This document shows, in pieces, positions 6,248 to 33,498 of a stretch of 64,000 nt of DNA. The position numbers and the translations under genes are program-made. Origin of the DNA: Obrimoposthia wandeli (lineage: Eukaryota). The DNA lies in NCBI GenBank assembly GCA_977020255.1, contig CDROCS010000412.1:1-64000 (forward strand), written 5' to 3'. The stretch's first letter is position 1; the number at the start of each line of letters is the position of its first letter. The notes under the pieces are model-generated. The model saw only the letters and a list, made by a program, of their open reading frames with translations, had not been told where the DNA came from and did not search any database.

Positions 6248-7704
6248 CAGTCTCTCTCTGTTAGTTTTATTTAGAATTTTATCCAAAAGTCAATAGAAGA
6301 GACGTTTTATAATATAAATTCACAAATATTTTTGCTAATTCTGGTTTACCCCTCACAATTGAGGATTCCATTTTAGATAAATTTTCATATGGCGATCGTT
6401 CCGTGATAAGAAGAAGAGGCCTGTGGCAGTACAACAATAACAACGCAATTCAAGACAATATTGAACATGATTTTAGTGACAGCACAGAAAGTCCACCATC
6501 GTGCAACCTGGAATCCGAAGACAACAACAATGAGTACTTCACGAGAAGCAAATCAACAGACGACAAAGGACAATCTCATATTAATCGAATCGGTATTGAA
6601 CAAGACCACATGGCAAGGCCACAAGACCCGGCATTGGGTGAAATACTCCAGCTATTGCGTGGCATGGACATGCACCTACGTTTACCGGATAATACTCCTG
6701 CTCCTACAGTATTACCTGGACCCATCGAGCTACAAAGCTACGGAAATGTCAAGCAGGATACCCTTAGGGCGCTCGTAGATAAAGACAAACGTTCTCAGCA
6801 CGAGGCAGAAGGTCTGTATAAGCTCAGCGAGCATATAGCACCTCTCGTGGCAGGGGACGATTTCCAAGTCGTGGTTACAACACGCGCCGAGGCCGTGGAC
6901 GCCCGATCACAATCAAAGAGTTCATTCGCTGCCACCAGAGTGCACATCCGTATGTAACTCAAGTCTCGCCAGTCAGCAATGCAGAAACAGGTGGTTTGCA
7001 ATCAACACAACCTGCGTACTTCAATGATTCGAGTGGTTGAAAGGTTTTCCACAGTAACAAAAGAGATGTGCTCAAGAAACCAGATCAACCGTCGCTTCTT
7101 GAAGCCTATAGGCGTAGCTTACTATTGGGAAACTTCACAGTGCTGGAAGATGACGGAAACAGCGTCAATCTCGACGCCCAGGTACATGCTCTAGCCACGC
7201 TTGGTTTTGCAAACTACGTAGCCCAAGTGCTGGAATGGCCATATGCGATTAATTATCTACACACAGATCTCTGGCGTAGTTGTTTCCTCTTTCCACAGAA
7301 TCAGGCTCCTACATGGCAATGGGACGAGCTACATGACAACGAGGTATAGGCTACAGATGCCACCCAGTTTTCAGTGGCAATAGTACAGTTGCGACCTACA
7401 CGACACATACACATGACGCTCAAGATTCCAGAAAAAAATATTTACATCCATGAAGCCAACCAAGGCCTTATTTGGACCTCAAAGACCAAGAGGATTCCGA
7501 GTGCCATGATTGAGTGGTGGATCCTGATAGCGCTGCAGATCTTGGTAACTATCAAATAGCTAAAAATACAATACATTATGTCAGAGCGGAATCCAGCAGA
7601 CAAGCCATCAAGAGACATCTTAGCCACGGCAGAACTAGAAGAGGATTCGACTCAGGCCTTTCAGGCGATGACATATGATATTTAAAACTAACAGAGAGAG
7701 ACTG
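6248..7704 (+). mobile_element. Element bounded by 21-22 bp inverted repeats, carrying a decayed tyrosine-recombinase-like coding region
   Basis: cagtctctctctgttagtttt (6248..6268) is the exact reverse complement of 7684..7704. Internal GC-richer ORF pieces (6403..6957, 7068..7349, later frames). The C-terminal AADLGNYQIAKNTIHYV and the paralogous RDYMFITIMLAN...LSAITIEEF resemble YR boxes. Confidence 0.45.
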
Positions 7705-7849
7705 GCATCTCTATATTTTTTGCCATATCTTATATGATAAACTCCCACCAATCACATCACGCCTGGAATTGTAGTTGGTAGGCTGAGAGTGATGTGACGG
7801 TAAGGAGCGACGGTTGATCCGGTTTTTTGGCCACATCTATTTTGTTACT

Positions 7850-8292
7850 GTGGAAAGCTTTCTAACCACTCGAATCATTGAAGTACGCAGGTTGTGTTGA
7901 TTGCGAACCATATGTTTCTGCATTGCTGACTGGCGAGACTTGAGTTACATACGGATGTGCACTCTGGTGGCAGCAAATGAACTCTTCGATTGTGATCGCG
8001 CTCAATTGTGGTAGTTGTACGTTGTTGTAAACGTTCGCCAACATTATTGTGATAAACATATAGTCCCGCCACCATCGCAAATAGGCTGGGTCACTATGGG
8101 AGGCCAGCTCCTCTACCAACCGGCGGGCGTCCACGGCCTCGGCGCGTGTTGTAACCACGACTTGGAAATCGTCCCTGCCACGGGAGGTGCTAGTGCGTCG
8201 GGCTTCGTACTTGCTGATCTCATCAGCTGATAAATCGTTGATGCGTGCCAATTTGGAGACTTTGGCCTCTGCAGCCGTCCACCCCACTCTCG
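7850..8292 (-). pseudogene. Inverted partial copy of the 6.4-7.1 kb coding region, retaining ~120 bp that is missing from the plus-strand copy
   Basis: Both copies encode DDFQVVVTTRAEAVDAR. The minus copy continues RLVEELASH...RDYMFITIMLAN...QLSA before rejoining at atcacaatc(g/a)aagagttcatt. Confidence 0.75.
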
Positions 8293-10429
8293 AATATAGA
8301 AAATTCAATTGGAGTGTTTATTCGTATTTCAGAAAAACATACTTATTTTAAACAAGATCCCGAAATGATTCCAGATTTTATTTTTCCTACGAACTTGTGA
8401 ACTTCAGATTTGAAAAGACATTTACAGTGATCTGCAAAATAAATCAAACAAGATCCTTTACATCGTAATGGTTTATTTTCTATTACATACGATATCGCTG
8501 CAGAAAAAGTACCAAAATCAGAATTACCTTAATTTATTAACAAATATACTTTGTAAACGTTGGTAGACAAAAATATAACCGAACTTCCGAAACCAAAGAA
8601 ATATTTTGGGTTTTTAAAATAAATATAAAGTGTCTAATTTCTTATGATTTCTTCTATTTCTTTCTCGCATTCTTTTCCCCTACTCATTAGTAGAATAAAC
8701 AATCTAATATAACTTATGTATATTTTAAGAGATCCTCATGTACCAAATCAGATAAAAGTACAACTTAAATGTAACTTAATAAAACTTAAAAGAAAAATAT
8801 TTGACTTAGGTAACGAATTCTTAGATAAGAATAATAATAATAAGCAAATTTAGTTGATTTAATATATGTAACTGATCTAAAAATATTTTTTTTAAATTAT
8901 AAATTTAAAACGGAATCAAATCCTAATTTTCGAAAGTGCAAATAGAAATACGACCTTAAAATTGTTCAGTTAACATTTGTAAAAATTAATGTGAATGTAA
9001 TGGCTTATTCGACGAGTTACAAGGACAAGTTAAATCGATTACAAGCGAAAAACCAATTTATCAGTGGCGACTGATAGTTCAGCACGATTCACTATCAACT
9101 GAAGGCTACCATATTTCTTCAGTACCTACTTACAATTTAACAGGTGCTGTTGACTCGCAGGTACCGACAAAAATATTTACGAAGTATAAAAATTTCTTTA
9201 CGACTAACATTTATGCATTTGAGCAGATTTCACACACTAAAATATATCAATAATATAAATCATATCAATTACGATTATAGAACTGATAAACTACCATTAT
9301 GCTGAAAGCAATAAAATTGAAAATGCAAATCATCTGAATGACACAACCAAAGGTCCCTATACTAGTCAGGGTTTAAGGGTTGATAGCAAGATAGGTAATG
9401 CAGATAAATCGTATAGAAAACATGGACGTTGAATTGGAATTATGTAGTCACCGTTATCAATTCGTTGCATCTGAATAGTTTTCTTATGTTGCAGTGTAGT
9501 CCTCGGCTTTTCCAGACAAAGTATGAAACTTGATTCGATTTTGTTGATCTATGCGTATTCAATTCGATTTTCGTACCTCAATGCAAAAAATGTCTAATAA
9601 GGAAATATTGAAAGACTTTTATAAATAAAATATAGTGACGTTCGAAAATATATATTTTATTTAATAAAGAGTTTAATTTTAAGTTCTAATAACAACTAAA
9701 GTATATGTCAAAATAATTTTCAAGAAAACATCATTTTATATCAATTATCAGACATTGTCTATAAATATAATCTTAAATTGAATAAAAAATAATCTTTCAA
9801 TAATTTTAGAAATGGCTTTTGATGGCGTTTACATGTTATGTACAATATACTGTATTTATGTATGAAAAGTAAACTATTTAGTTCAGAAGAATTTTATAGG
9901 TTAGATTACAGATTTAATATTATATGAAAATATATTCAAAGTTTAATATTAAATTAATAATGTTTGCTAATATATTATATATTTTATTTATAATAAAACG
10001 TTGTTTTAACTGTTTAATTGTATCTCAATTTTTGTTTAAAAAATTAATTAAATTATACAAATAATTTCGATTAACAATAGTAACATTTTTATTCTAAATA
10101 ATTTAAATATATGTCAACTTTAATAAATTTAAATAAAATAATATTCATATGATAACTGATTTTTTTGTATTTATTTTAATATGACTGATTTCACATCAAA
10201 AAGTTATCAGTGAAAACTCGAGTCCTGTTTCAAGAAACCTTTTTTTAATTATTGTCCCATGAAATTTTTAAAAATAATGCATTCTCACAAATTTATCCCT
10301 TATACGCTTTTTAATCTGAGAACATATGTTTCAATATCTTAAAATGGGCTTCATGGAAAAACGTGAGATATGCTCATCAAGCCTCTTTTGATGTTTGTAA
10401 AATTGAGATAGAAAACTGTTTCTCAGATT

Positions 10430-11383
10430 TGTTGGGTTGTTAATAAAAATAATTAATTTTTGTCAATTTAATTTGACATTTAAAAGTAATCTAAAATGCC
10501 CACAATTAGGGAGGTTTTCAAATTCAGCCTCCGACGGGGTGGTCCCGTTTCGCCTTGCCAGGCTCATCAGGAAGGCGGCTAGTTTTTTTTGATAGAGATA
10601 AGAAAGTGGTTTTGACCACCAAAGATTTTTTCCGCCCAGAAAAGACAGCGGATGTGATTGCGGTTTGATGCAATCTGGCTGATCATCATCATCATCATCA
10701 TCATCCTCATCCATCATCCTATCGGTCAGCATCCACACAGTCACTTCTATCCTGCCTTCCTCGGATGCAGTTGATGGTGCATCGCAGAGATTGTGTGTGC
10801 AACGGAGATCGATGCAGTTCAATCCACCTGATTGCAATGGCTTTGCCAATGCCACATGCTTGCCGATTGCCGCGGGATCTTCCTCTCAGCCTACATTGAC
10901 AACAGTAACAGCAGTGAAAGAGACATACACACAGATTATCCGTTTCACCTGTTGCTGCACATCCTGTGTACTGCTGTCATTTCACATATCTGGCCTTTAC
11001 ACAAGTCCACAATCTGTCGGCTACTGCATATTGATTGATTTTTGGCAGAGGATGGAGGCTGTGTGTTGACTTTACACTTTTGATATATAAAATGCAATTG
11101 GGATTTTGTCAAGACAGAAACTGATTTTATCAAATACACAAAAATTATTATAAAAATATTTTCAGCAAACAATTGATTGAAATCAACAATTTGATATTAC
11201 AGAAACGAAGTTATTTCATCAACAATTTGATATTACAGAAACGAAGTTATTTCATCAACAATTTGATATTACAGAAACAAAGTTATTTCATCAACAATTT
11301 GATATTGCAGATTCAATTAATAAATTAGATTTTGATCATTATTTGATTTTTGGAGGGATTAACCACATATACCATTTATAACA
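10430..11383 (+). repeat. 5' LTR (954 bp)
   Basis: TGTTGGGTTG...TTTATAACA. By eye it differs from the 3' LTR by about four substitutions and one ATC unit. Contains a 36-bp tandem repeat at 11182..11313. Confidence 0.95.
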
Positions 11384-11386
11384 ATT

Positions 11387-11404
11387 TGGTGAGCTCGACA
11401 TCTC
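11387..11404 (+). promoter_or_regulatory. Primer-binding site, possibly tRNA-Trp-like
   Basis: TGGTGAGCTCGACATCTC begins 3 nt after the LTR. Its complement ends ...GTCGAGCTCACCA, resembling the eukaryotic tRNA-Trp 3' end (..GTCGGGGTCACCA). tRNA identity is inference. Confidence 0.6.
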
Positions 11405-13301: not shown

Positions 13302-14528
13302 ATGGCTGAACATAAATTAAATGTTCCTTTAGACGCTTTCAATGGCGATAAATCTTCACTACCCGAATTTTTAAATAGATTTGATTCATTTGCTCAGGCA
13401 TTTGAATGGACTAATGTAGAGAAACTTAGGGTTTTTCTGGCGTATTTAAAAGGCACTGCCTTAACAATTTATAGAGGATTAAATAATGAACAGAAAGACA
13501 CATGGGACCATTTAGTTCAGAATTTTCAAAATATGATTTTAGGTGCACAGTCTGAATAAAATTACCTTAACCAATTTAGGCAACGTGAACAACATTTGGG
13601 AGAACCCACAAATATTTTTGCAGTTGAATTACGAAGATTAGCCTTAAAATCATTTCCCGGAATTGAGGAAGTCTTAAGAGAACGTTTGCTCCTACATCAA
13701 TTTCTATACGGGCTAAACAGTAAAATAAAAAATCACCCAGCACTACTAGAAGTAGAAAATTTTCAGCAAGCTGTAAATAAGGCTCAACTTGTAGAAACAA
13801 GATTAAACATGTTACAACAATCTGAAGTTTCAGCATTAACCTTTGAAAAAATACAAAGACCAACAATACCACCAAATTTCAATCAAACTCAAAACTATAA
13901 CCCAAATACACAATCTAATTACCAAAGCCAACAACAATATACACCACCGACAAATAACTTTTATAGAAATCAAACAAACAGAAACTATACAGACTCACAA
14001 ATTACTCAAAGACCTTTCCAAAAATGTACAAATTGTGGACTGCAAAATCACACAATAGAGAATTGTTATAAAATAACCAACAACAAATTTTGTAGATTTT
14101 GTAAAAAAGACAATCATACTATTGAAACTTGCCGAAAATTGTTATACAGACAAGGTAATAATATAAGACCACAAAATAATAACTTTAATAATCTTAATAA
14201 TAATTTCAAAAATACAAATAGTAATTTTAGAAGCCCATATAATAATTTCAATAATTAAAATAATCAAGCTAAATATTTTAATACTAATACAAAATTTTGT
14301 AAAATTTGTAATATGAAAAATCACAATACTGATGAATGTAGCAAACTAAATACAATGATGAACCAATTTGGTAACACAACAATAAAACAACCACAACCAC
14401 AGAGTCAAAAAACAGTACAGTTTAACAATCAAAATCAACAATATGCTTACAGAAACCCAATACATACTATTGAAAACACTGATATAACTCAGGAAATTGA
14501 TGAGATTAAGGCAACAAGAAATAGATAA
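13302..14528 (+). CDS. gag: Gag (capsid plus three CCHC zinc knuckles), interrupted by one frameshift (~13558) and one in-frame TAA (14256..14258)
   Basis: FNGDKSSLPEFLNRFDSFAQAFEW capsid-like segment. Knuckles CTNCGLQNHTIENC, CRFCKKDNHTIETC and CKICNMKNHNTDEC (C-X2-C-X4-H-X4-C). Confidence 0.85.
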
Positions 14529-14624
14529 TCACTACAAAGAAACACATCAGCAATACCAAAACAATGAACAAAACACAAATAGTACCAACTCTCAATCCGA
14601 ATTCGGAGAAATATTTAGAAATGG

Positions 14625-16710
14625 TTGTCTAACATTAAAAAAAAGAACACTCAAACCACTCAAACACAAGATAAAAAATCGAAAAATAAAAATAAACGAA
14701 AAACACCAAAAAATAGTAAAAAGTCAACTATTAAAAATACATATAATTTTAACAAAATCATCCAGAATCTATGGAAAATAATTCAAATAATATTTATGAT
14801 ATGTATAATTACAAATATAATAAAACCAGTTAATGCCTTGGAAGCGTATGATTGCTCAAAATATAGTATTCGAAATAAATATTCCTTAATGGATTTACAA
14901 CAATGTGCTGATGCCGACCCTAACGAAGTAAAAATCAAAACCACCAAGTTATTCCATGTATATCAGGAAACAGATTTCATAAATACAGAAGTTTTCGAGT
15001 GTAGGGTACACGTAGAAACATTCATAACATATTGCGGACAACACAGCCATAATTCAATTGTCAAACCTGCACTAGGAAAAATACCAATAATTGTCGATGC
15101 ACTAAATTGTAAGGACGCTTTTGCAACAGGAGAACTAAGAATAGATAGAGAAATTAAAGTACGAGCAGTAAAAAATAAAATTATACAACAAATGATTACA
15201 GTAGTAGGAACAATAAAATCTGACGGTGCATGTACAATAGGCACATACGTTGTGATGGGAGTCAAACAAAGTGGCTTAGTAGTTAAAAAAAACTTTGAAG
15301 TAGAACTAAGAACGTTCAAGGCAACATTTGACCCATCTACAAATAATATGGTAACTATGCCATTTTGCGAAGCAAATATAGGTCATTGCAATACAGGATC
15401 CTCAATTTTATATTATAAGGTAAAAACAGACCAATGTAAATTAATACTCCTAAAATCTGAGATTTTTCAAATAATTCAAGGTCAAAGATTTAAAGATGAC
15501 CCGGAACTTGATCAAAGAGTGCCAAAAGATATACATAAAAAATATAGGACAAGAAAAATTCAAAAAACATCAACCCCAACTATTTTAATGTCTACAGAGC
15601 AAGGTTCTGGAATGCGATTTATTAAAAAGAAAGAGGAATCCCGATGTGGACACTCTATTTATACAACTAACTATAAAGGAATATATTTAAGTAAAGAAAA
15701 AATATATAATGCAAAAACGACACCAACAAAGTTTGACATAAAAAATTACGATTATTTTAATAATAAATTATTATTTTTATCACAAAGGATTAATGACAAT
15801 AGAAGCAATTTATAGAGAAACGATAATAAATGACTGTAAATTAAACCAAGAAATTTTGAAAACAAAATTGGCAATTATTGCTACAAATCCAGAATTAATA
15901 ACATCATTATTACCACTAGCTGATGGTACTTTTGGAAGAGTAATGGGAGAAGTGCTATATACTTATCAATGTAAAAAAGTAATAGTTAATATAAGAAATC
16001 ATAATAAATGCACTAAAGAATTACCAATTTCATACAAAAATCATTCATTATTCGTAGAACCAATCACCAGAATAATACTTTTTAATACATTCAGTATAAA
16101 GGAAATGAATTGCTCAAACATAATGGCATCTCATTATCAAATCTCAAAGGATATTTGGATATCACTCCCAAGAAGAGACATAGTTGCTCAACCATTAAAA
16201 TTACAATTAACCGACCTCAATAACGACATAGAAATAAAATCAGACAATGAACTCAATACAAAAGGTATATACATACAAGAAGACATAGACAAATTAAGAA
16301 AAGAAATTTTATTTCCTCAAATTAGATCACGAATTTTAACACAAATAATTGAAAGATCAGTACCAAATGGAATTGGCCGTCCTGATTATGATTTATTACT
16401 TTCTCCAAATCATTTCATAAAAGCTACACAAAATACAATGTCAAAAATATGGGGAAAATTTTTAATTTTTGGTCAAGCATTTTCTGGACTTGTGGGAATA
16501 TATGCATTGCTAATATGTTTTAAGATCCTTTTGAGTCAAATTTTATCTACATATTATATTTATAAAGTTGGTGGATTGACATGGAAACTAATTTTAGGAT
16601 GTTTTCCATTTTTGGCAAAATTTCTTATATTTAACCATCATCAAAATACAGTAAACGCATTATCAAACGAAATGCGAGAAAAAAAATTTACAAAAAATAG
16701 TAGACAATAA
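14625..16710 (+). CDS. env: Envelope glycoprotein of class III type (chuvirus G / herpes gB-like), split by one frameshift at ~15800
   Basis: Basic leader plus hydrophobic signal ending ..NIIKPVNA|LEAYDC. Cys-rich ectodomain. YFNNKL...IY...C...LAII..NP...GEVLYTYQC segment and C-terminal FGQAFSGLVGIY...IK hydrophobic anchor, as I recall for chuvirus-like glycoproteins. Confidence 0.75.
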
Positions 16711-19453
16711 AAATAAAGAGAATACAGAATCTGCACAATACCCCGATTTAGAAATATATAAAGAAGAAATAAAAGTTCAAAAATCAGCTGCACCAACAAT
16801 ATATACTATAAATCAAATGAATAATGATAGACGACCTTATGTAAAAATTGAAATAAATGAGTATAAATTAAAAGCTTTAATTGACACAGGATCAAGCGTA
16901 ACAGTTTTGGACGAGTCTTTCTTAAAACCACACCAAATATTAGTACTTCTCACAGATAATAGTCAAATAACAGCAGCAAACGGTCAACCCGTAAATATTA
17001 TTGGTAAATTAGATTGCATTTTTAAAATAGGAGATAAATTTATAAAAATACCTACTAGAATAATGAAAAATTGTCCATGTCAGATGATAATAGGAATAGA
17101 TACATTAAGGAAATTAGGAAACAATTTTCATTTCGACTTCGAGAAAAATCAAATTAAAGACATTTATAGACCAAACGCTAAAAGCGAATACGAATTGGAA
17201 ATAAAAGGAGATATCATCCTTCAACCTAGAACAGAAACAATATTACAATTAGAAACTAACATAGTTACAGAAAAAGACATCTTATTCGAACCTTATAAAT
17301 ATCAACAAGAAACACTAAATAACGTTCTACCAAATATAATTTTTAAAATAAAAAATAATACAATACCAATCAGAATACTAAATGGAGATATAAACGAGAT
17401 TCATCTAAAAGTAGGAACACGCCTTGGAAAAACAAGTGTTATAGAAAATATAGAATTAATTAATAATGAAAAAATAGAAGACAATATAACTGTAGAATTC
17501 GAAAATATTAGATTAAATGATTATGAGAAATCAAAATTAAAATCATTAATAGAAAAATATGACGTAATTTTTGCAAAAAATGAATATGACCTTGGACGAA
17601 CAGATTTAATTAAACATAACCTTCCGTTAACTATTAATACAGCAATCAAACAACGACCTTACCGTATCCCATACGCTTACAGAGAAGAAGCTCAAAGACA
17701 GGTAAAAGGAATGTTAGAGAATAAAATCATAAGAAGAAGTTTTTCAGCATGGACATCTCCAGTTGTTTTGATAAAAAAGAAAGATGGTTCACTGAGATTT
17801 TGCGTAGATTACAGAAAATTAAACGAGATCACACATAAAGACACATATCCGCTTCCAAGAATCGATGAAATCTTGGATATACTAAAAAATGCAAAAATAT
17901 TTACAACCTTAGATTTACAAAGTGGATATTGGCAGATAGAAATAGATGAATCAGATAAAGAAAAAACAGCATTCTCAACAGGAGAAGGATTATACGAATT
18001 TAACGTTTTACCTTTTGGATTAACAGGTGCTCCAGCAACATTTCAGAGATGCATGAGCCACATTTTGATGGACGCCGATCATGTCATGGTCTATATCGAC
18101 GATATTCTAATTTTTTCAAAAAATTTTGAAGAACATTTAAAAGATTTAGAAAATGTATTTCTTAGATTAAAAATAGCAGGTTTAAAATTAAAACCAAAAA
18201 AGTGTGAATGGATGAAAGACAAAGTGAATTATCTAGGTCACGCAGTATCTGCAAAAGGAATTCAACCAGATGAAAGTAATATAGAAAAAATAAAGAATTT
18301 TCCAATCCCAAAAACAATAAAAAATATACAAGAATTTTTAGGACTTGCAGGATATTATCGTAGATTTATCAGAAACTTTGCACAAATAGCAACACCATTA
18401 AACAAACTTATTAAAAAGGATGAAAAATTTGAATGGGAAACGGAACAACAAGAGTCATACGAGTACTTAAAACAAAAATTGATTGAAAAACCTATATTGA
18501 GATATCCTAATTTCAACAACTCGTTTCTAGTAATGACTGACGCAAGTGGATATGCGTTAGGAGCAGTACTAGGACAACAAGATAATAACGAAAAAGATCA
18601 TGTGATAGCTTACGCAAGCAGAGGTTTTAAAAAACACGAAATAAATTATTCAATAGAAAGAGAATGCCTCGCTATTTGTTTCGCAATGGAACATTTTAAA
18701 CATTACTTATTAGGTCGAAAAGTTCACGTTTATACTGATCAAAGACCATTACAGTGGCTACTAAATCATAAAGATACAACATCTAGATTAATGAGATGGG
18801 CGTTAATTCTGCAAAAATATGATATTGAAATTAAATATAGAAAAGGTAAATCAAATGCCAATGCAGATTGCCTATCTAGAATAAGAGAAGAAGTAAATGT
18901 AATAAATTCCAATGACACCGAATTAAATATTTTTACAATAATCAAGGCTCGATATGATGATAAAGTAATCACCGATCTTCAAAGCAAAGATACGGAATTA
19001 CAACAAATAATTAAGTACATCACCATCAATCAAGTTCCAACAGATGAAAAATTAAGAAAACATTTAAAAATTCATGAATCTCGTTATAAATTCAGTAACA
19101 ATATTTTACATTATTTAAACGATAAAAATCTGTACTCACTAGTTATACCTAAAGAAATACAATGCCAATTACTCCTTCAATATCATAACGGAGCTTTAGG
19201 AGGACATATTTCAACAAAAAAGACACATTCGAGATTAAATTTAAAATATTATTGGATTGATATGAAAGAAGATGTAAAAAATTGGTGTAATACTTGTGAA
19301 ATATGTCTTAAGAGAAAAAACACTTTACGTACCACAAAGATACCTTTAAAACCAATACGGTATCCATCAGCCCCCATGGAAACTGTTGCCATGGATGTAA
19401 TGGGGCCATTACCTGAAACACCCCGAGGAAATCGATATATAATAGTATTTTAA
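16682..19453 (+). CDS. pol: Pol: aspartic protease, RT, RNase H and integrase HHCC domain
   Basis: ALIDTGS protease, YIDD RT, MTDASG..ERE..YTD RNase H, HNGALGGH..CEIC zinc finger, first catalytic D (AMDVMG). The frame is open from 16682, upstream of ATG 16817. Confidence 0.95.
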   Translation, partial: KNLQKIVDNKNKENTESAQYPDLEIYKEEIKVQKSAAPTIYTINQMNNDRRPYVKIEINEYKLKALIDTGSSVTVLDESFLKPHQILVLLTDNSQITAANGQPVNIIGKLDCIFKIGDKFIKIPTRIMKNCPCQMIIGIDTLRKLGNNFHFDFEKNQIKDIYRPNAKSEYELEIKGDIILQPRTETILQLETNIVTEKDILFEPYKYQQETLNNVLPNIIFKIKNNTIPIRILNGDINEIHLKVGTRLGKTSVIENIELINNEKIEDNITVEFENIRLNDYEKSKLKSLIEKYDVIFAKNEYDLGRTDLIKHNLPLTINTAIKQRPYRIPYAYREEAQRQVKGMLENKIIRRSFSAWTSPVVLIKKKDGSLRFCVDYRKLNEITHKDTYPLPRIDEILDILKNAKIFTTLDLQSGYWQIEIDESDKEKTAFSTGEGLYEFNVLPFGLTGAPATFQRCMSHILMDADHVMVYIDDILIFSKNFEEHLKDLENVFLRLKIAGLKLKPKKCEWMKDKVNYLGHAVSAKGIQPDESNIEKIKNFPIPKTIKNIQEFLGLAGYYRRFIRNFAQIATPLNKLIKKDEKFEWETEQQESYEYLKQKLIEKPILRYPNFNNSFLVMTDASGYALGAVLGQQDNNEKDHVIAYASRGFKKHEINYSIERECLAICFAMEHFKHYLLGRKVHVYTDQRPLQWLLNHKDTTSRLMRWALILQKYDIEIKYRKGKSNANADCLSRIREEVNVINSNDTELNIFTIIKARYDDKVITDLQSKDTELQQIIKYITINQVPTDEKLRKHLKIHESRYKFSNNILHYLNDKNLYSLVIPKEIQCQLLLQYHNGALGGHISTKKTHSRLNLKYYWIDMKEDVKNWCNTCEICLKRKNTLRTTKIPLKPIRYPSAPMETVAMDVMGPLPETPRGNRYIIVF

Positions 19454-19481
19454 TTTACAATTTTACAAATTATATTAATTT

Positions 19482-20345
19482 ACAAGATGGCCAGAGGCTT
19501 TCCCAACACATGATCATAAGGCTGAAACCATCGCGAAGGTTTTAGTCGAAAAAATTATTTTTACTTTCGGTGCACCCCGAAAATTATTAACCGACAAAGG
19601 TCCTGAATTTATAAATAATGTATTAGAATCAATAGCTGAAATCTTTCACATTAAAAAGATCAATACAACACCATATCACCCTCAAACCGACGGATTAGTA
19701 GAAAGATTTAATAGAACCCTCGAAGATATGATGGCATCATACACAAACAACAACCAAACAGATTGGGATTTACACATACCCCCATGCCTTTTTGCATATA
19801 GAACATCAGTACTTGCATCTACAGGAGAAACACCTTTTTACCTTATGTTCCTCAGAGATCCTCAAATGCCTATTGATCTAACATTACTACAACCTACTAC
19901 ACAGTATCTAGAAATACCTGAATACAAAATAGAAATTAGAGAAAGAATAAAACTAGCATTTGAAAAAGCTAAATTATTTGTAAAAAAGATACAAGAAAAT
20001 TACAAAGAATATTATGATAGAAGAACTAAACCATCAAATATAAAAATCGGAAGTAAAGTAATGATTCACAATCCACAAATCAATGTAGGATTATCACACA
20101 AATTATCAAAACCATACAAAGGACCATATACAGTTATTAGTACCAATGGAACTAACATAACAGCCAAACTCGACAATGAACCAAAATCAAAAGAAATAAG
20201 AACACATATAAACAGATGTCGAGAAATACCAGAGGAAAATACAAAAGTAAAAAATCACAAATATAACTTAAGATCAACTAACAATAATACTGTTCTACAA
20301 ATGTTAACTATAAAAACTCACAAAAACAAAACAAGACTAAATTGA
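19482..20345 (+). CDS. pol: Integrase catalytic core and C-terminus, after a frameshifting insertion at ~19451-19481
   Basis: TRWPEAF...LTDKGPEF...TTPYHPQTDGLVERFNRTL, GPY motif (KPYKGPY), and YNLRS end. Confidence 0.9.
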   Translation, partial: TRWPEAFPTHDHKAETIAKVLVEKIIFTFGAPRKLLTDKGPEFINNVLESIAEIFHIKKINTTPYHPQTDGLVERFNRTLEDMMASYTNNNQTDWDLHIPPCLFAYRTSVLASTGETPFYLMFLRDPQMPIDLTLLQPTTQYLEIPEYKIEIRERIKLAFEKAKLFVKKIQENYKEYYDRRTKPSNIKIGSKVMIHNPQINVGLSHKLSKPYKGPYTVISTNGTNITAKLDNEPKSKEIRTHINRCREIPEENTKVKNHKYNLRSTNNNTVLQMLTIKTHKNKTRLN

Positions 20346-21622
20346 GTCATCAAACTAGAAATACAATAAAAATGTCAATAAAAGAAATATGTAAAATAAT
20401 GATGTTATTAATAATATATTTTACAGTAAAAAGTAACATAATAAAAGTAAATGCTATAAATCTGAATGAAAATCAATTAATAGTAAAAGACGAAATACAT
20501 AGATACGACTCATCAACACATCTCATAAAAAAATTTGGACTAATTACAATAATACCTGAAATCACATCAATAAAGTTAAAAATATCACTCTTTACAAAAA
20601 AATTAGGAAGAATTCAAATAATACAATCTGAAAAAAATCAAATAATAAATATTTACAAAATCGAATCAAAAAATTATATAATACCATTTTTAAGAACAGA
20701 AACACAATACAAAATAAGAGTTAAGTCAAATTAAAAAAATATAACACTCTATGAAAGAATTATAGAAACTCACTTATACTTAGCCTCAATATTAAAAACA
20801 ACAGCAAAATATATAACAAAACATCAAATCATGATAAATTGGGAATTTCAACTTAAAATAGATAATTTAGATAAAACCCTCATTAGAATTAGATATAGAG
20901 GATATAATGATCATTTTTGGAAAGACGCAGAAAAACAATTAGAAAAAACACAAATCAGAACAAATATAACTATAAAAAATATAAGATATCCAGAAAAAAT
21001 AATTATGGATAATAGAGAATGTGTAATTACTAACAAACCCATAATGTATAGACAATGGGGACAACAATTTGAGACTTGTAAAAACCTAACAAACTTAAGG
21101 ATTTTAGGAAATAAAATATCCAAATTATACCAACCTACGATTTATTGTTGTCAATGGTCAGTAATTACAATTAGGAAAAATATCAAAGAAACAACCATAA
21201 AACAAATATCACATACTACAACATTCACAACAAAGACTTATGAAATTACAAATCAAAATATTATCACAGAAAATAAAACAATTAACAAAAAATTAAAAAC
21301 AACAGAAACAATGCTCTATAAATCATTTAATAAAAGTCTAAAAATACACTTTAGTAAACAAAAATACTCAAAAAATATAAATAACAAGGAATTTTTTATA
21401 ACAATCATAATAATCGAAACCTGCACATTAATCATAAAAATAACATGGAAGATCATTAAAGTAAAAAATAATACAATTTTCAAAAATCATTATCGGACTA
21501 AGTATTGTGAACCACCTGGCCCATTTATGACACCCATCATTCCTAGCTCTTCAAACTCATCTAACGTGTCAATAAATACAATAATTGAAAATAATAAAAA
21601 GAAAATAGAAATTTTTTTATAA
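20342..21622 (+). CDS. Type I membrane protein with FN3-like ectodomain, one in-frame stop (20732..20734)
   Basis: ORFs 20342..20734 and 20831..21622 share a frame, and only the TAA separates them. Signal peptide ..NIIKVNA|, YIIPFLRTETQYKIRVKS and INWE..IRIRYRG FN3-like motifs, Thr-rich stalk, TM FFITIIIIETCTLII, short tail. Confidence 0.55.
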
Positions 21623-21776: not shown

Positions 21777-22085
21777 ATGAGAAATTCAAAATTAGTACAA
21801 AATAATAGAAGAAGATATAAGAGACAGAAAAAATGGGAAAATAAATTGTTGATAGAGAATATAAATCTGAGATCGCATTTAAAAGACAAGGAAATGGAAT
21901 GTGAACGAATGAATAATGCTTTTAACGTGGCAATTGAAAGATTGGAACATAGCCAAACAAATCAGGAAATACTAGTACAAAGACTCAGAGAAGCATTAAA
22001 TTCACTAATATCCTTACGATCAATGGTGAATCACTTGATGGGATTCCAACATATAGAAAGCGACGATTCTGGATGCGACAATTAG
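21777..22085 (+). CDS. 102-aa basic/coiled-coil accessory protein inside the retroelement
   Basis: Intact ATG ORF with RRRYKRQKK followed by heptad-like helix; no family recognised. Confidence 0.45.
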   Translation: MRNSKLVQNNRRRYKRQKKWENKLLIENINLRSHLKDKEMECERMNNAFNVAIERLEHSQTNQEILVQRLREALNSLISLRSMVNHLMGFQHIESDDSGCDN

Positions 22086-22457
22086 TAAATTCCCCAGTTA
22101 GTAGAGTAAAAATCATTTAAGAAAAGAACAAGAATGAAATCAGAATTATGAGCATGTTTTTATTTTTTTTTGAGAAATTGGTGTTTATTGAAGGGGAAAT
22201 AAAAATCACTTGAGTAAAAAACGATAAGTAAAAATATAATAGTGTTAAATAGTGATATAATGTAATGAAATAAACTTAATATCTGTAAATAAACATATTC
22301 TTACATACTGTCATTTTAAAAACTCTTAATTTTTTTGTTGAACATTGAAACAAGAACACAATATGAAAATCAGACTTTAATTTTTGAGAACAATAATATT
22401 TTATTCTTGCATGAACTCTGACATCTTTATTTTTATTTCTGATTGTGTGCTTTACAG

Positions 22458-23586
22458 ATGGAACAATCAAGCTCAAACCCCCATTTGAATTGGCAGGTTG
22501 TTCCGCGGGGAAAGAGAGAAAAGTCAATAGTACTAGCAGATAAACGACCTGAAATGGCAAAAATGGCTAAATTCCTTTATGGAAAAATAAGACAATTCAC
22601 CACTTTTTTCTTTAATATGGCCAAAAACGTTTGAAAATCAAACACAACTTCCTAATAGGATTAAGCTCAGAGATACAATTAGAAGGAGCATAATCCTAAA
22701 CTATAACAATAAAAAATCTACAGATAGAAGACTGTTAGATATTATTAAACCCATCCCAACATGCACAGATATTGAAATCCATATGGCAAAGGACCGCGGT
22801 TTCTTACGGCATAATAAATGCAAAAAGTTTAGCATTCTCCTTTTACAAAATCATTCCTATAGAATAAAATGGCACCAAGTCACACCAGACTATAAAATTC
22901 ACTTACCCAATGGCCATAATATATTATTCATAGAGCAAAACATCCAACCCAAACCTGTTCAAGTTTGCCACTTAACAGTCACCCCCACTAGTCCACAGTT
23001 ATTTTTTGTCGATTGCGAAATGGTGAGAAAAATGAATAACCAACAAACCTTAGCCAGTATCACCATAATGGACAAAAGTGGAAAAATCATATTAGACACA
23101 CTATGTAATAGCCAAGACAGAATCAGGTCTTACGTCACATTTAAGACGGGACTAACCGAGAATAAACTGAGAAACCAACCTGATTCTAAGGAGATAGTGA
23201 AACATGTTCAGTCTTTATTAAGAGGCAACATCTTCGTTGGAACGGGAATTGTTAACGACCTAAAAGTGTTAGGATTGAAAAAAGATGATTTTTCAAAGAT
23301 TGTGGACTTGGGCGCAACAAAAACCATTCTACAAGATATGAATCGTCGTGAACAGGCGGGATTAGCAGGAATGGTTAAATTCTTTTTTAATAAGATCATC
23401 CAAAAAGATACCCACTCTAGCCTAGAAGATACCACATGGACTAGACAAATTTTCCTTTTTAAAGAACAAGAACTGCTAAAAGAATGTGGTTTGACCGTCT
23501 CTTTTCCCCGCGTAACCAACGCTAATTTTCCTGTCGTAACCGAGGTTATAGATCTCACCTCCTCTGATTCCGAGGATGATGATTAG
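22458..23586 (+). CDS. DEDDh 3'-5' exonuclease (REX4/ISG20-like) with N-terminal extension
   Basis: FFVDCEMV (ExoI D,E), VGTGIVNDLKVL (ExoII D), THSSLED (ExoIII H,D). The frame of the 22783 ORF is open back to 22591, and one extra T in the 22604..22609 run would join it to ATG 22458. Confidence 0.85.
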
Positions 23587-23918: not shown

Positions 23919-24875
23919 TGTTGGGTTGTTAATTAAAATAATTAATTTTTGTCAATTTAATTTGACATTTAAAAGTAATCTAAAATGCCCACAATTAGGG
24001 AGGTTTTCAAATTCAGCCTCCGACGGGGTGGTCCCGTTTCGCCTTGCCAGGCTCATCAGGAAGGCGGCTAGTTTTTTTTGATAGAGATAAGAAAGTGGTT
24101 TTGACCACCAAAGATTTTTTCCGCCCAGAAAAGACAGCGGATGTGATTGCGGTTTGATGCAATCTGGCTGATCATCATCATCATCATCATCATCATCCTC
24201 ATCCATCATCCTATCGGTCAGCATCCACACAGTCACTTCTATCCTGCCTTCCTCGGATGCAGTTGATGGTGCATCGCAGAAATTGTGTGTGCAACGGAGA
24301 TCGATGCAGTTCAATCCACCTGATTGCAATGGCTTTGCCAATGCCACATGCTTGCCGATTGCCGCGGGATCTTCCTCTCAGCCTACATTGACAACAGTAA
24401 CAGCAGTGAAAGAGACATACACACAGATTATCCGTTTCACCTGTTGCTGCACATCCTGTGTACTGCTGTCATTTCACATCTCTGGCCTTTACACAAGTCC
24501 ACAATCTGTCGGCTACTGCATATTGATTGATTTTTGGCAGAGGATGGAGGCTGTGTGTTGACTTTACACTTTTGATATATAAAATGCAATTGGGATTTTG
24601 TCAAGACAGAAACTGATTTTATCAAATACACAAAAATTATTATAAAAATATTTTCAGCAAACAATTGATTGAAATCAACAATTTGATATTACAGAAACGA
24701 AGTTATTTCATCAACAATTTGATATTACAGAAACGAAGTTATTTCATCAACAATTTGATATTACAGAAACGAAGTTATTTCATCAACAATTTGATATTGC
24801 AGATTCAATTAATAAATTAGATTTTGATCATTATTTGATTTTTGGAGGGATTAACCACATATACCATTTATAACA
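23919..24875 (+). repeat. 3' LTR (957 bp)
   Basis: Near-identical to 10430..11383, ends TATAACA followed by GATT. Confidence 0.95.
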
Positions 24876-25879
24876 GATTCAATATGCATTTAAATTCGAT
24901 AAGAATCCCGGAATTTAAATGTAAATTCATTGTCATACACAATTGTCTTCTTAACAATTTTCTAAAAACTCTAAACGCAAGTAATATTTAATTTTGATAA
25001 AAAAAACTTTTAAAACTGTATTTCATTTATGTAATCGAACTCTCATAATAGTTGAGTGCTCCTAAATATTGTAATTTCATTTAATTATACTTTTTTATAG
25101 AAATTATCATAATAATATAATCTATATAATTAAGAATTTAATATAATTAAAAGGCTTAACTGTTTTTTAATCAACTAAAATGTGAGGGTAAAAGTTCTTC
25201 TCAAATTCAATAAATGCTGTAACAAAATATCCGTCCTAACTTTAATTAGTGGTTCTTCAAAACGGATACTGTGTAAATTAGCTAGATATATAAATTTTAA
25301 TGTAATTTTTAAAGACATTAAATTAATAATTATAAAATAGGTATACAGATATATTTTCTAAATTATTTTTCACCTAAATTGACTGCAATAATTTTAAAGT
25401 TTTATTCTTATGTTTTGACAAAAATGATTTTTAATAAAACTAAAAAATTTATGATTTTAAGTAGTTGCTTTTAAAACTGCTTAGTAGTGTATTAGTAAAA
25501 AATAATAGCACAGCCTTAAAAATTTTAATTAATAAAAAGAGCAATAAAACGTTTCTATCACTATAATTTTATTAAAATAAAGTTGTTTTTTCAAACAAGA
25601 AATTTAACGAAATAATTGAATATTTTTTAACTAACTTTTTAAATTTTAAAAATGTTAAGGAATCCAAGATATGCTTGCAAACTAATTATTGAATTCATGT
25701 TTTATGCAAAATATAATTTTTAGTAATTTAAATTAAATAAAATTAAATCATTTTTTATAAAAACATTATTTTTAATTTTAAATGTTTTAAATTTTCATAA
25801 AATTTTGAAATTATTTTAAATTATTAATATGTCATATGTTATAATTATTTTATTAAATAATTAATATAACTTTGATATA

Positions 25880-31364: not shown

Positions 31365-33498
31365 CTAACAAAGACAGTCACGTACTGCATCTATATTGCA
31401 AAAACCTGCAAATTTATGTAAATTTATGTAAATACCAATATATTTAAAATAAAGACAAGTATTTCTAACACATATATTCCTTAAAATCACAAAGGAGAAT
31501 AAAAATATGTACAACACATATAAAAAGTGACCATAGGCGACTGAACGGTTTTTCTCCACCCACTTGCGCTTATCATCACTACTGCTTAAGGCAATTTTAC
31601 TTAACCTTACAGTAAAAAGTTGATGATTTAGCGAGCTTATACGTTGTTGTTGTACACGCTCGCTAACGCCACTCTCATATACGGCTAAGTAATTAGAGTG
31701 CCTAATACTCGTCTGTCGGAGACTAATACCTTTCGCTCTCATCTGAGATTCACCTTCTGTAGTCTCTAGGCTATATGATTTTGGTCGTAGAAAAATCCCT
31801 TGCCTATAACTAAATAATCCCTTACTCTCATCTTTAAATTTTCCTATCGCTGTATTAATCGTCGTATAAAGCGGATGGGTTTTTGGAAATTTCGAGGTAT
31901 CCAACAGTCCATCAGCAATCATAGCAGGTAACAGTGATTCTTGAACATTGACATTATTACACTTCAAGAAAAAGCTATCAGTGTCACCCGCTATAATTCT
32001 AATGTCGCAGTTAAATTGAACTCGATATTTCTCCAACTGCTCATATTGTAGCTCATACATACGAAGTTTGCTTAAATCTAATACCGCCTGGCCCATGTAA
32101 CTAGGACGATCCAAAACAATATTTTCCTTATCCAGTAAAACTGCAATAAGGTCCGTGTCGATTTCGATTGTCCTACGAAAGTGGGCTTTACTGCAATAGG
32201 TAACCAGCTTCTGTGGAGTATTACAAATCCGGAGGTTAATTCTTTTCATTAGATTCTCAATGAGTTTTCCAAATAAAGAATTCACCTTCAGTTTGTAGTA
32301 ATCCCGCTCGAAATCTGTTGTAGCCGCAGCTCTTTTGAGAGAATTATCCTCAATATTTTTTGAAAAAACAATAGTTTGTTCAAACTGTATTGCTCTATAT
32401 ACAAAATCTACCTTAGCACCAAGTCTAACGTACATTTGTAGCAATCTAGAATGCACAACATAATGTTTCTTAGGGTAATGCGTTAATAACAATTTTTCAG
32501 TCTTACACCCTGGTGGACGCTGTTTAATTGGAGCAAGGGGAAGATCGTCGAATTTATTATGAAGCTCGTTGGGAATGGATAAATCTATTTCCAATAAATG
32601 AGCGAAGCGACTACAGGATAAATCTATTGATTTTAAGCTGGAGATAATATTCCCCAACTCTAACCGATCAGTCACCCAGGAAAAGTTACCACAAGGTAAA
32701 AACTGGGACATAGCCCACCCGTACAAATTATTTACATCAATGTACAAAAGTTCTGTACCATTGATGGCGTCCACGCGGTGTTCATTAACAAATGTCATAC
32801 CCCCGCGAATCCCGGACCGGAAGAGTCGGTACAACTCTGGATCCTGTATTAGCTCGACTCGCACAGGAGGAGAAGAAGAAGCCGGACGAAGCAGGGATTT
32901 GAAAGCACTCGCGAAAGTCAGTCCTGGAAATAAAAACATTTATTAAAATCATTGTGAAAATCATTACTTTGAAAATCATCTATCTAACAAAGACAGTCAC
33001 GTACTGCATCTATATTGCAAATACTTGCATCTTTATGTAATCAATAGTAACAAGAACTACATTTATTCTTATACATGTATATATATATATATGTGTTAGT
33101 GTCTAAAATTAGAAAAAATTAGTAAAATACAAACCAGGGATGGAGAAGAAATTGAGTGGCTCCAATCCATCGTCAGCAATGGCCTTAGTCCGGAATGCTG
33201 TAAACACGTCTGCTAGAAGGTAGACGTCCATCTTCATATAGACCAGCATATAGTCCCAGAGCGATGAGCAGCCGCTCTGAGTCCAGACCATCTTCGCCAT
33301 TTCATATTGTGCTGGCTTGATCTTTTCATCCCACTTTGGCGGTAAGCTGGTGATTGCGCGAAGAGCAGTCTCTGATACTGCCATATCGTATGGGAAGATT
33401 CCCTTGGCGCTCACCAGATGTTGTGAGAAGATGTGTTTTACTACATCAATAAAATTAATTAATCCGGGAAGAGTATATAAGAGAAAAAATAATTTCAT
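31365..33498 (-). CDS. polB: Family B DNA polymerase of protein-primed/Polinton-like type, two exons, 5'-truncated
   Basis: KGIFPYD, Y..MDVYLLADVF (ExoIII), GIRGG, YIDVNNLYGWAM (Pol I), KLKVNSLFGK (Pol II), IAGDTDSFF (Pol III), ..AYGH end. Removing intron 32924..33134 restores FFSIPG|LTFASAFK. No ExoI/II coding found upstream. Confidence 0.9.
32924..33134 (-). other. 211-nt phase-1 GT-AG spliceosomal intron in polB
   Basis: Donor CCT G|GTTTGT, acceptor TTTATTTCCAG|GA CTG; AT-rich interior; frame preserved. Confidence 0.8.

Follow-up and report, generated by a model that had tools for sequence, protein, structure and literature searches.

A Ty3/gypsy element family of Obrimoposthia wandeli with a gB-type Env between Gag and Pol in a single reading frame

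How a retroelement expresses an envelope gene that lies between gag and pol is the question raised by a 64,000-nucleotide stretch of the Obrimoposthia wandeli genome (assembly GCA_977020255.1, contig CDROCS010000412.1, positions 1 to 64,000, forward strand), hereafter the window. The window holds a 14.4-kb long terminal repeat (LTR) element that encloses gag, env and the protease (PR), reverse transcriptase (RT), RNase H (RH) and integrase (IN) domains of pol. A preliminary description of positions 13302 to 20345 proposed that these genes form one Gag-Env-Pol frame with an internal signal peptide and a class III fusogen. Sibling copies of the element bear out the single frame for the family, and show that it continues past integrase into a further protein, here called X, for a length of ~2,780 codons. 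The frame is likely translated at the endoplasmic reticulum (ER) as a polyprotein of Gag, a class III Env of the herpesvirus glycoprotein B (gB) type, PR, RT, RH, IN and X, and the chain is likely cut by host signal peptidase and the element's own protease.

One reading frame across the family

The window copy is a dead, recently inserted member of a multicopy Ty3/gypsy element. Its 5' and 3' LTRs are identical at 950 of 954 aligned positions, and in-frame stops and frame breaks interrupt its coding region (Table 1). The frame breaks are private to this copy (1/38 alignment rows each) except the one past integrase, near 20310, which is common to 7/38 rows. The two gag stops are absent from the bulk of the family in read-derived contigs (four runs from one sample and study, kind unrecorded). 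Placement in Ty3/gypsy (Metaviridae) follows from TG...CA LTRs with a target-site duplication, the order PR-RT-RH-IN and a Ty3-like RT. The best match of the RT among solved structures is Ty3 RT (E 1e-96), ahead of caulimovirus-type RT (1e-62) and retroviral RTs (6e-36 and weaker), in a library that holds no BEL/Pao RT.

The order of domains on the plus strand is as first described: a Retrotrans_gag match (Pfam, E 3e-4) is followed by two pieces of the Monjiviricetes fusion glycoprotein profile PF24664 (E 9e-30 and 1e-56) and then by the pol domains. Gag and the first piece of env share a frame within the window, and the break between env and pol sits at the run of A residues that had been named and is one of the private ones. 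Two details of the preliminary description needed correction. Compensating single-base indels near 14505 and 14620, proposed for the gag/env junction, are instead two private multi-base deletions near 14500 and 14650, and the stop at 20343-45 that closed the described interval is a by-product of a frame break, the family frame running on into X as far as 21622.

The genome yields at least 41 matches to the gag-env-pol stretch and at least 101 to X. The sibling set comprises 77 copies, namely all 37 full-length non-self matches of the gag-env-pol search (a first set picked for its env likeness) and, from the search with X, the 40 best matches beyond these; copies lie a median of 1% away from the column majority. 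Junctions were counted in copies homologous at both landmarks. Between the nucleocapsid part of Gag and Env, 45 of 65 usable copies keep the frame and 32 are open; between the Env transmembrane region and the protease the counts are 64 and 50 of 71, and between IN and X 52 and 41 of 68. Control stretches of like length inside domains give 62 in frame and 49 open of 69, 48 and 45 of 69, 51 and 41 of 58, and 50 and 45 of 70. The junctions thus keep the frame and stay free of stops as frequently as the interiors of RT, Env or IN do, and the family has one reading frame. Consistent stops between gag, env and pol were not seen in the siblings. Stop-free frames of 1,700-2,090 codons cross the junctions in individual natural copies; the longest reach from gag to integrase in one case (2,086 codons) and from env into X in another (2,082 codons). 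The frame closes with TAA at 21620-22 in 27/38 rows (7 are gapped), and the same end recurs in 36/40 further copies.

Gag, Env, Pol and X are under purifying selection, since variants shared by at least three copies, which have been passed on through replication, are poor in amino-acid changes by comparison with private variants. Counted as amino-acid-changing (N) against silent (S) variants in 26-38 copies per domain, with copies more than 4% divergent excluded, shared variants number 6 N/16 S in gag (private 126/56, P 2e-4), 11 N/38 S in Env (234/88, P 2e-11), 18 N/59 S in Pol (380/166, P 1e-14) and 14 N/14 S in X with its linker (128/31, P 1e-3). CpG sites show little decay (0.033 vs 0.027 transitions per site). 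The copy population also recombines heavily: the tree of 38 copies is star-like, and 4,923 of 9,869 variant pairs fail the four-gamete test. A second Env allele, ~10% divergent over the window-equivalent of 14800-16800, lies in a near-identical gag and pol background in 11/40 second-set copies and is an env swap by recombination. Such an allele would escape the first sibling set, which was chosen by env likeness.

The layout extends beyond the family. A database search with Env returned 1,195 matches, and 13 close or long ones, all gene-caller products from contigs, were scanned. Protease follows Env within one protein in 10 of these 13 relatives, a Gag marker stands ahead of Env in six, and the complete series of knuckle, Env, PR, RT, RH and IN is present in two. 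The genome contains a second such family, with Env 41% and RT 61% identical, in which knuckle, Env and protease stand in one frame in 4/4 copies examined.

Several variants of the arrangement were observed alongside. Other families of the same genome have gB-type Env genes within open frames of up to 4,300-5,300 codons, and one other family, seen in four copies, has long spacers between Gag, Env and protease. Database relatives include proteins in which Env is followed by two to four protease domains, zinc fingers or ankyrin repeats. One complete knuckle-Env-Pol-X polyprotein is labelled as a protein of a Flavobacteriaceae metagenome-assembled genome, and is likely from an animal contig binned with the bacterium.

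Env, protein X and a proposed membrane topology

Structure prediction agrees with the earlier suggestion that Env is a class III fusogen. A monomer model built from a natural unbroken sibling and 93 homologues reaches a predicted local distance difference test (pLDDT) score of 89.5. Its top matches among solved structures are all herpesvirus gB (E 3e-13, template-modelling (TM) score about 0.4), and its top matches among predicted structures are chuvirus glycoproteins (E 3e-40, TM score up to 0.76). By prediction, then, the family carries a class III Env.

The signal-like segment described ahead of Env, ending in VNA before LEAYDC, is present. It has a counterpart ahead of the AYDC-like start in 9 of the 13 relatives having that start. 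A second signal-like segment opens X, and both segments are preceded by basic stretches and end in VNA. Two hydrophobic segments follow the Env ectodomain; on an approximate membrane-insertion scale with rough weighting, scores range from -1.0 to +1.2 for the first and from +1.9 to +5.6 for the second in all 10 proteins scored of 13 tried. Only the first scores as membrane-spanning, so that one crossing is predicted between the Env ectodomain and the protease. An odd number of crossings is required there because RT and integrase must work in the cytosol.

Protein X, which is in frame with integrase in the siblings, has eight glycosylation sequons and one membrane helix after its signal-like start. 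Its ectodomain is probably FN3-like, and the leading guess is that X is an attachment partner of Env. It would be a candidate for a receptor-binding partner such as gB needs in herpesviruses.

An internal signal, with Pol carried on the Env tail, is the topology best inferred from these sequences. Gag would stay cytosolic while signal 1 directs the Env ectodomain into the ER lumen, and after cleavage of signal 1 Gag would remain tethered through its C-terminus, like the capsids of flaviviruses and hepatitis C virus (HCV). The Env helix would stop transfer and keep PR-RT-RH-IN in the cytosol; signal 2 would reopen transfer and place X in the lumen, where its own helix would anchor it ahead of the tail. 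Pol would be held at both ends, and Gag at its C-terminus, until the element protease releases them. Budding would occur at internal membranes; on the particles Env would serve as fusogen, and X would likely act in attachment or as a partner protein. The single frame thereby implies a testable assembly scheme unlike that of retroviruses, in which Gag is C-terminally anchored and Pol would be packaged via membrane-protein tethers rather than as a Gag-Pol fusion.

A frequent stop in Env and the rival accounts

A nonsense change to TAA, ~490 residues into Env and ahead of the anchor, is present in 14/38 rows of the first set and 14/32 usable copies of the second (28/70 overall). It is the sole stop among variants present in at least eight copies. 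The change is not at a CpG, and no stable RNA structure was found at the site (z +1.3). It occurs on three local haplotypes (21/52, 4/7 and 3/11), including the divergent Env allele; markers of that allele lie ~20 nucleotides to either side, so the stop arose more than once or was converted. The tree of 38 copies scatters it, and the stop is not datable from that tree because half of the variant pairs fail the four-gamete test. Genomes with the stop would make Gag and a soluble Env piece only, and would be carried in trans by intact copies; co-expression of the two would raise the ratio of Gag to Pol. The stop may tune Gag to Pol, may be neutral or an artefact, or may be the sign of another route to Pol. 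If real, it is a natural example of a nonsense allele kept common in a retroelement population that is otherwise under strong purifying selection.

How the frame is expressed can be read in other ways. That gag, env and pol are separate open reading frames (ORFs) joined by programmed frameshifts or stops, with the window layout the true one, is very improbable. The window is indeed shifted at both junctions, in A-rich runs, and the available passages on related elements treat gag, env and pol as three ORFs (Chary & Hayashi, eLife 2026; PMC13524379). However, the junction breaks of the window are private and the commonest junction lengths in the siblings are multiples of three; together with the junction counts, these rule out programmed frameshifting at the junctions. 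Less remote, while still improbable, is that the family keeps one genomic frame from which the proteins are made mainly by spliced or internally started RNAs, the long polyprotein being a minor product. Such expression would explain both the tolerated Env stop and a Pol that is equally intact in its carriers, methionines lie in frame near both signals and before the protease, and classical errantiviruses regularly make Env from a spliced RNA. On the other side, a simple and loose splice scan found one donor-like site, inside env, but nothing acceptor-like from the Env helix to the active site of the protease and no env-skipping pair, and spliced or internally started RNAs leave the stop-free junctions of distant relatives unexplained. 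The ER-translated polyprotein is the preferred account, and several points weigh against it. None of the copies examined is open from end to end (0/37 in the first set, 0/40 in the second), and because of this the full frame is pieced together from natural frames that overlap and from the junction counts. For the Gag-Env linker taken by itself, selection does not reach significance (P 0.10), and the single crossing after Env is predicted on the rough scale given above. Env and X could also come from RNAs of their own, each with a methionine at or near its signal. Stop carriers among the sibling copies show neither extra downstream damage nor excess decay of Pol, and a strict scheme of one polyprotein fits poorly with a stop that would cut off Pol in ~40% of copies. 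For X, no homologue was found in Pfam, PDB or sequence-database searches, a single-sequence model has a pLDDT of 31, and a look-up in the Atlas gave scores of 0.87-0.90 to membrane proteins with FN3 domains and to cytokine receptors, too low for the recognition to be trusted.

Whether the stop means anything, and what X does, are separate questions within the polyprotein account. The stop could be an assembly or base-calling artefact, or a meaningless neutral hot-spot, in which case the polyprotein would hold without a two-form population; this is a realistic possibility, if clearly short of an even chance. The stop is unlinked to neighbouring variants (mean r2 0.01) and sits on three haplotypes with markers within 20 nucleotides, as a recurrent event or error would, but several other frequent sites are also weakly linked, and the stop may be an old allele spread through recombination. 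The change completes a perfect 7-bp inverted repeat, yet palindrome-perfecting changes are not enriched overall: 3/149 reach six copies, vs 330/24,780 of all changes, and quasi-palindrome templating as a general mechanism found no support. Against a hot-spot, too, the same five-letter context occurs at 42 sites and only the Env stop site is frequent (30/70; next 5 and 3), and every other shared stop is limited to between two and a few copies, other shared damage being purged. Somewhat closer to an even chance is that X is an unrelated accessory membrane protein, serving in immune modulation, superinfection block or as a Pol anchor, and acquired separately by each lineage. Pairwise comparison of X with the tails of the relatives gives no significant similarity, and selection on X is weaker than on Env (0.22 vs 0.06). 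The position and the layout of signal-like segment, ectodomain and later membrane segment nevertheless recur past integrase in 4 of the 5 relatives that reach it (four of the 13 scanned and one cluster member). An L-x-P/T-x-T-x-Y motif, defined after the tails had been seen and which we take to be FN3-like, occurs in four of five tails and is absent from 25,364 other residues; the one tail that lacks it fits an accessory protein better. In the fullest reading, the elements would be retroviruses of flavivirus-like design, with one membrane-threaded polyprotein that places Pol between two surface proteins: a gB-type fusogen and an FN3-like protein for attachment, which would supply the partner apparently missing from lone gB-type envelopes. 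The ratio of Gag to Pol would be set by a recurrent stop rather than by ribosomal frameshifting, with ~40% of genomes acting as helpers that make Gag and soluble Env. This fuller proposal is tentative and, taken as a whole, unlikely.

The element in its window and among known systems

Table 1. Features of the LTR element in the window (window coordinates)
Feature	Position	Strand	Remarks
Target-site duplication, 4 nt	10426-10429 and 24876-24879		
5' LTR	10430..11383	+	TG...CA ends, 954 nt
Primer-binding-site-like stretch	11387..11404	+	TGG three bases past 5' LTR; from sequence
Gag: capsid region and three CX2CX4HX4C zinc knuckles	13302..14340	+	In-frame stops 13557 and 14256 in window copy
Gag-Env linker, polar then strongly basic	14341..14756	+	Two private frame-breaking deletions in window copy
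Internal signal-like segment 1	14757..14837	+	Predicted signal-peptidase site before LEAYDC; hydropathy 1.87
gB/chuvirus-G-type class III Env ectodomain (predicted)	14838..16470	+	Frame break near 15770 in window copy
Env-truncating stop site frequent in siblings	16303..16305	+	Sense codon in window copy
Env membrane helix and conserved second hydrophobic helix, the latter predicted non-crossing	16480..16632	+	Rough scale
Protease, RT (YIDD), RNase H, integrase (H2C2, core, GPY)	16830..20230	+	Breaks near 16680 and 19450 in window copy
Protein X, 416 aa	20372..21622	+	Signal-like segment 2, weakly FN3-like ectodomain, helix, tail; family stop 21620-22; window copy broken near 20310, stop 20732
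Membrane helix of X	~21392-21450	+	
Small separate ORF, coiled-coil-like	21777..22085	+	Open in 20/37 siblings; region present in siblings
Separate DEDD-type 3'-5' exonuclease ORF	22591..23586	+	PF00929, E 2e-6
3' LTR	23919..24875	+	957 nt

Two ORFs outside the long frame complete the element. Matches of the smaller one to Anthrax_toxA and Nsp1_C (E 0.03-0.04, below the cut-off) were set aside as noise from the coiled coil. Ahead of the exonuclease frame, at 22440-22600, lie an acceptor-like site and a short stretch rich in A and G; as judged from these motifs, the frame may be expressed by splicing. On its minus strand each LTR contains a 140-codon frame (10463-10885, and in the 3' LTR) that is richer in GC and includes a run of acidic residues; Pfam gave no match for it. 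Each LTR also has a 36-nucleotide tandem repeat.

Other mobile or viral sequences share the window. A tandem array on the minus strand (36800-60000) repeats a unit of ~1.52 kb at least 15 times, and every unit has an ORF resembling CRESS-DNA-virus Rep, with a Walker A helicase motif. A look-up of this ORF in the Atlas gave 0.96 to Cressdnaviricota Rep, and the array has the look of a small circular genome, coding for Rep only, that was integrated as a concatemer. Also on the minus strand, a 524-codon frame at 31365-32939 has no Pfam match at 0.01; by eye, it shows motifs that we take to resemble those of a protein-primed family B DNA polymerase of the Maverick/Polinton or adintovirus type. At 6854-8175, inverted repeats of 52 nucleotides (100%) and 200 nucleotides (92%) flank a GC-richer island of 1.3 kb, possibly a small DNA transposon.

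The preliminary description implied that the gag-env-pol order was new. That order is already published: GAG-ENV-POL elements with gB-type Env are described from Platyhelminthes, Nematoda and Bryozoa (Chary & Hayashi, eLife 2026; PMC13524379), a paper that also cites nematode endogenous retroviruses in which Env and Pol are flipped (Sacco et al. 2022; J Gen Virol 103:1739). The present element has the features of the published HSV/gB-type group (HSV, herpes simplex virus): a Ty3/gypsy Pol, LTRs, multiple copies, and between gag and pol a class III gB-like Env with signal and helix. The flipped nematode elements reportedly have a continuous gag-env-pro-pol ORF and an RNA-virus-like glycoprotein, so the single frame is not counted as new here; they are not known to have a second membrane protein in the polyprotein. 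Compared by eye, the Env domain I-II rows of Smed_errantivirus_1-6 (cysteine group C1a) share cysteines and short motifs with the present Env. Together with the AT-richness of the DNA, this likeness points to a flatworm as host. As for differences, the available text of PMC13524379 treats its elements as three ORFs, with no discussion of a polyprotein, in-frame arrangement, fusion, frameshift or splicing, and its passages mention no post-integrase membrane protein, frequent Env stop or exonuclease. It gives the entry mechanism of gB-carrying elements as unknown. A literature search aimed mainly at gene order, plus FN3, found neither a second post-integrase membrane protein nor a frequent Env stop in such elements.

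Other systems share single traits with the family. Atlas virus, which is grouped with related nematode belpaoviruses, encodes a 2,828-residue retroelement polyprotein that includes GN-like and GC-like envelope glycoproteins (PMC9094657; bioRxiv 10.64898/2026.03.22.711591), a likeness in being a single chain. According to the parts of those sources available, however, it is BEL/Pao, has a class II fusogen and bears its envelope C-terminally after Pol, so that Pol is not between membrane proteins; in the present element, Env precedes the protease and RT is strongly Ty3-like, which sets it apart from Belpaoviridae of the Atlas or Anakin type. Classical insect errantiviruses (gypsy, ZAM and Idefix) differ by an F-type env placed after integrase. 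In the polyproteins of flaviviruses, HCV and alphaviruses, the capsid ends in the signal of the following envelope protein, signal peptidase cleaves there, and the enzymes lie downstream in the chain. These are unrelated RNA viruses with class II fusogens, and the likeness would be an analogy of mechanism rather than of membership. Ty3/gypsy LTR elements of bdelloid rotifers have a DEDD exonuclease ORF downstream of pol (PMC5408684). There, in the passages available, the exonuclease replaces env as ORF3, whereas the present element has an exonuclease together with a gB-type Env, X and a small coiled-coil-like ORF. The element belongs to the published GAG-ENV-POL gB-type Ty3/gypsy group, to which it adds protein X and the frequent Env stop.

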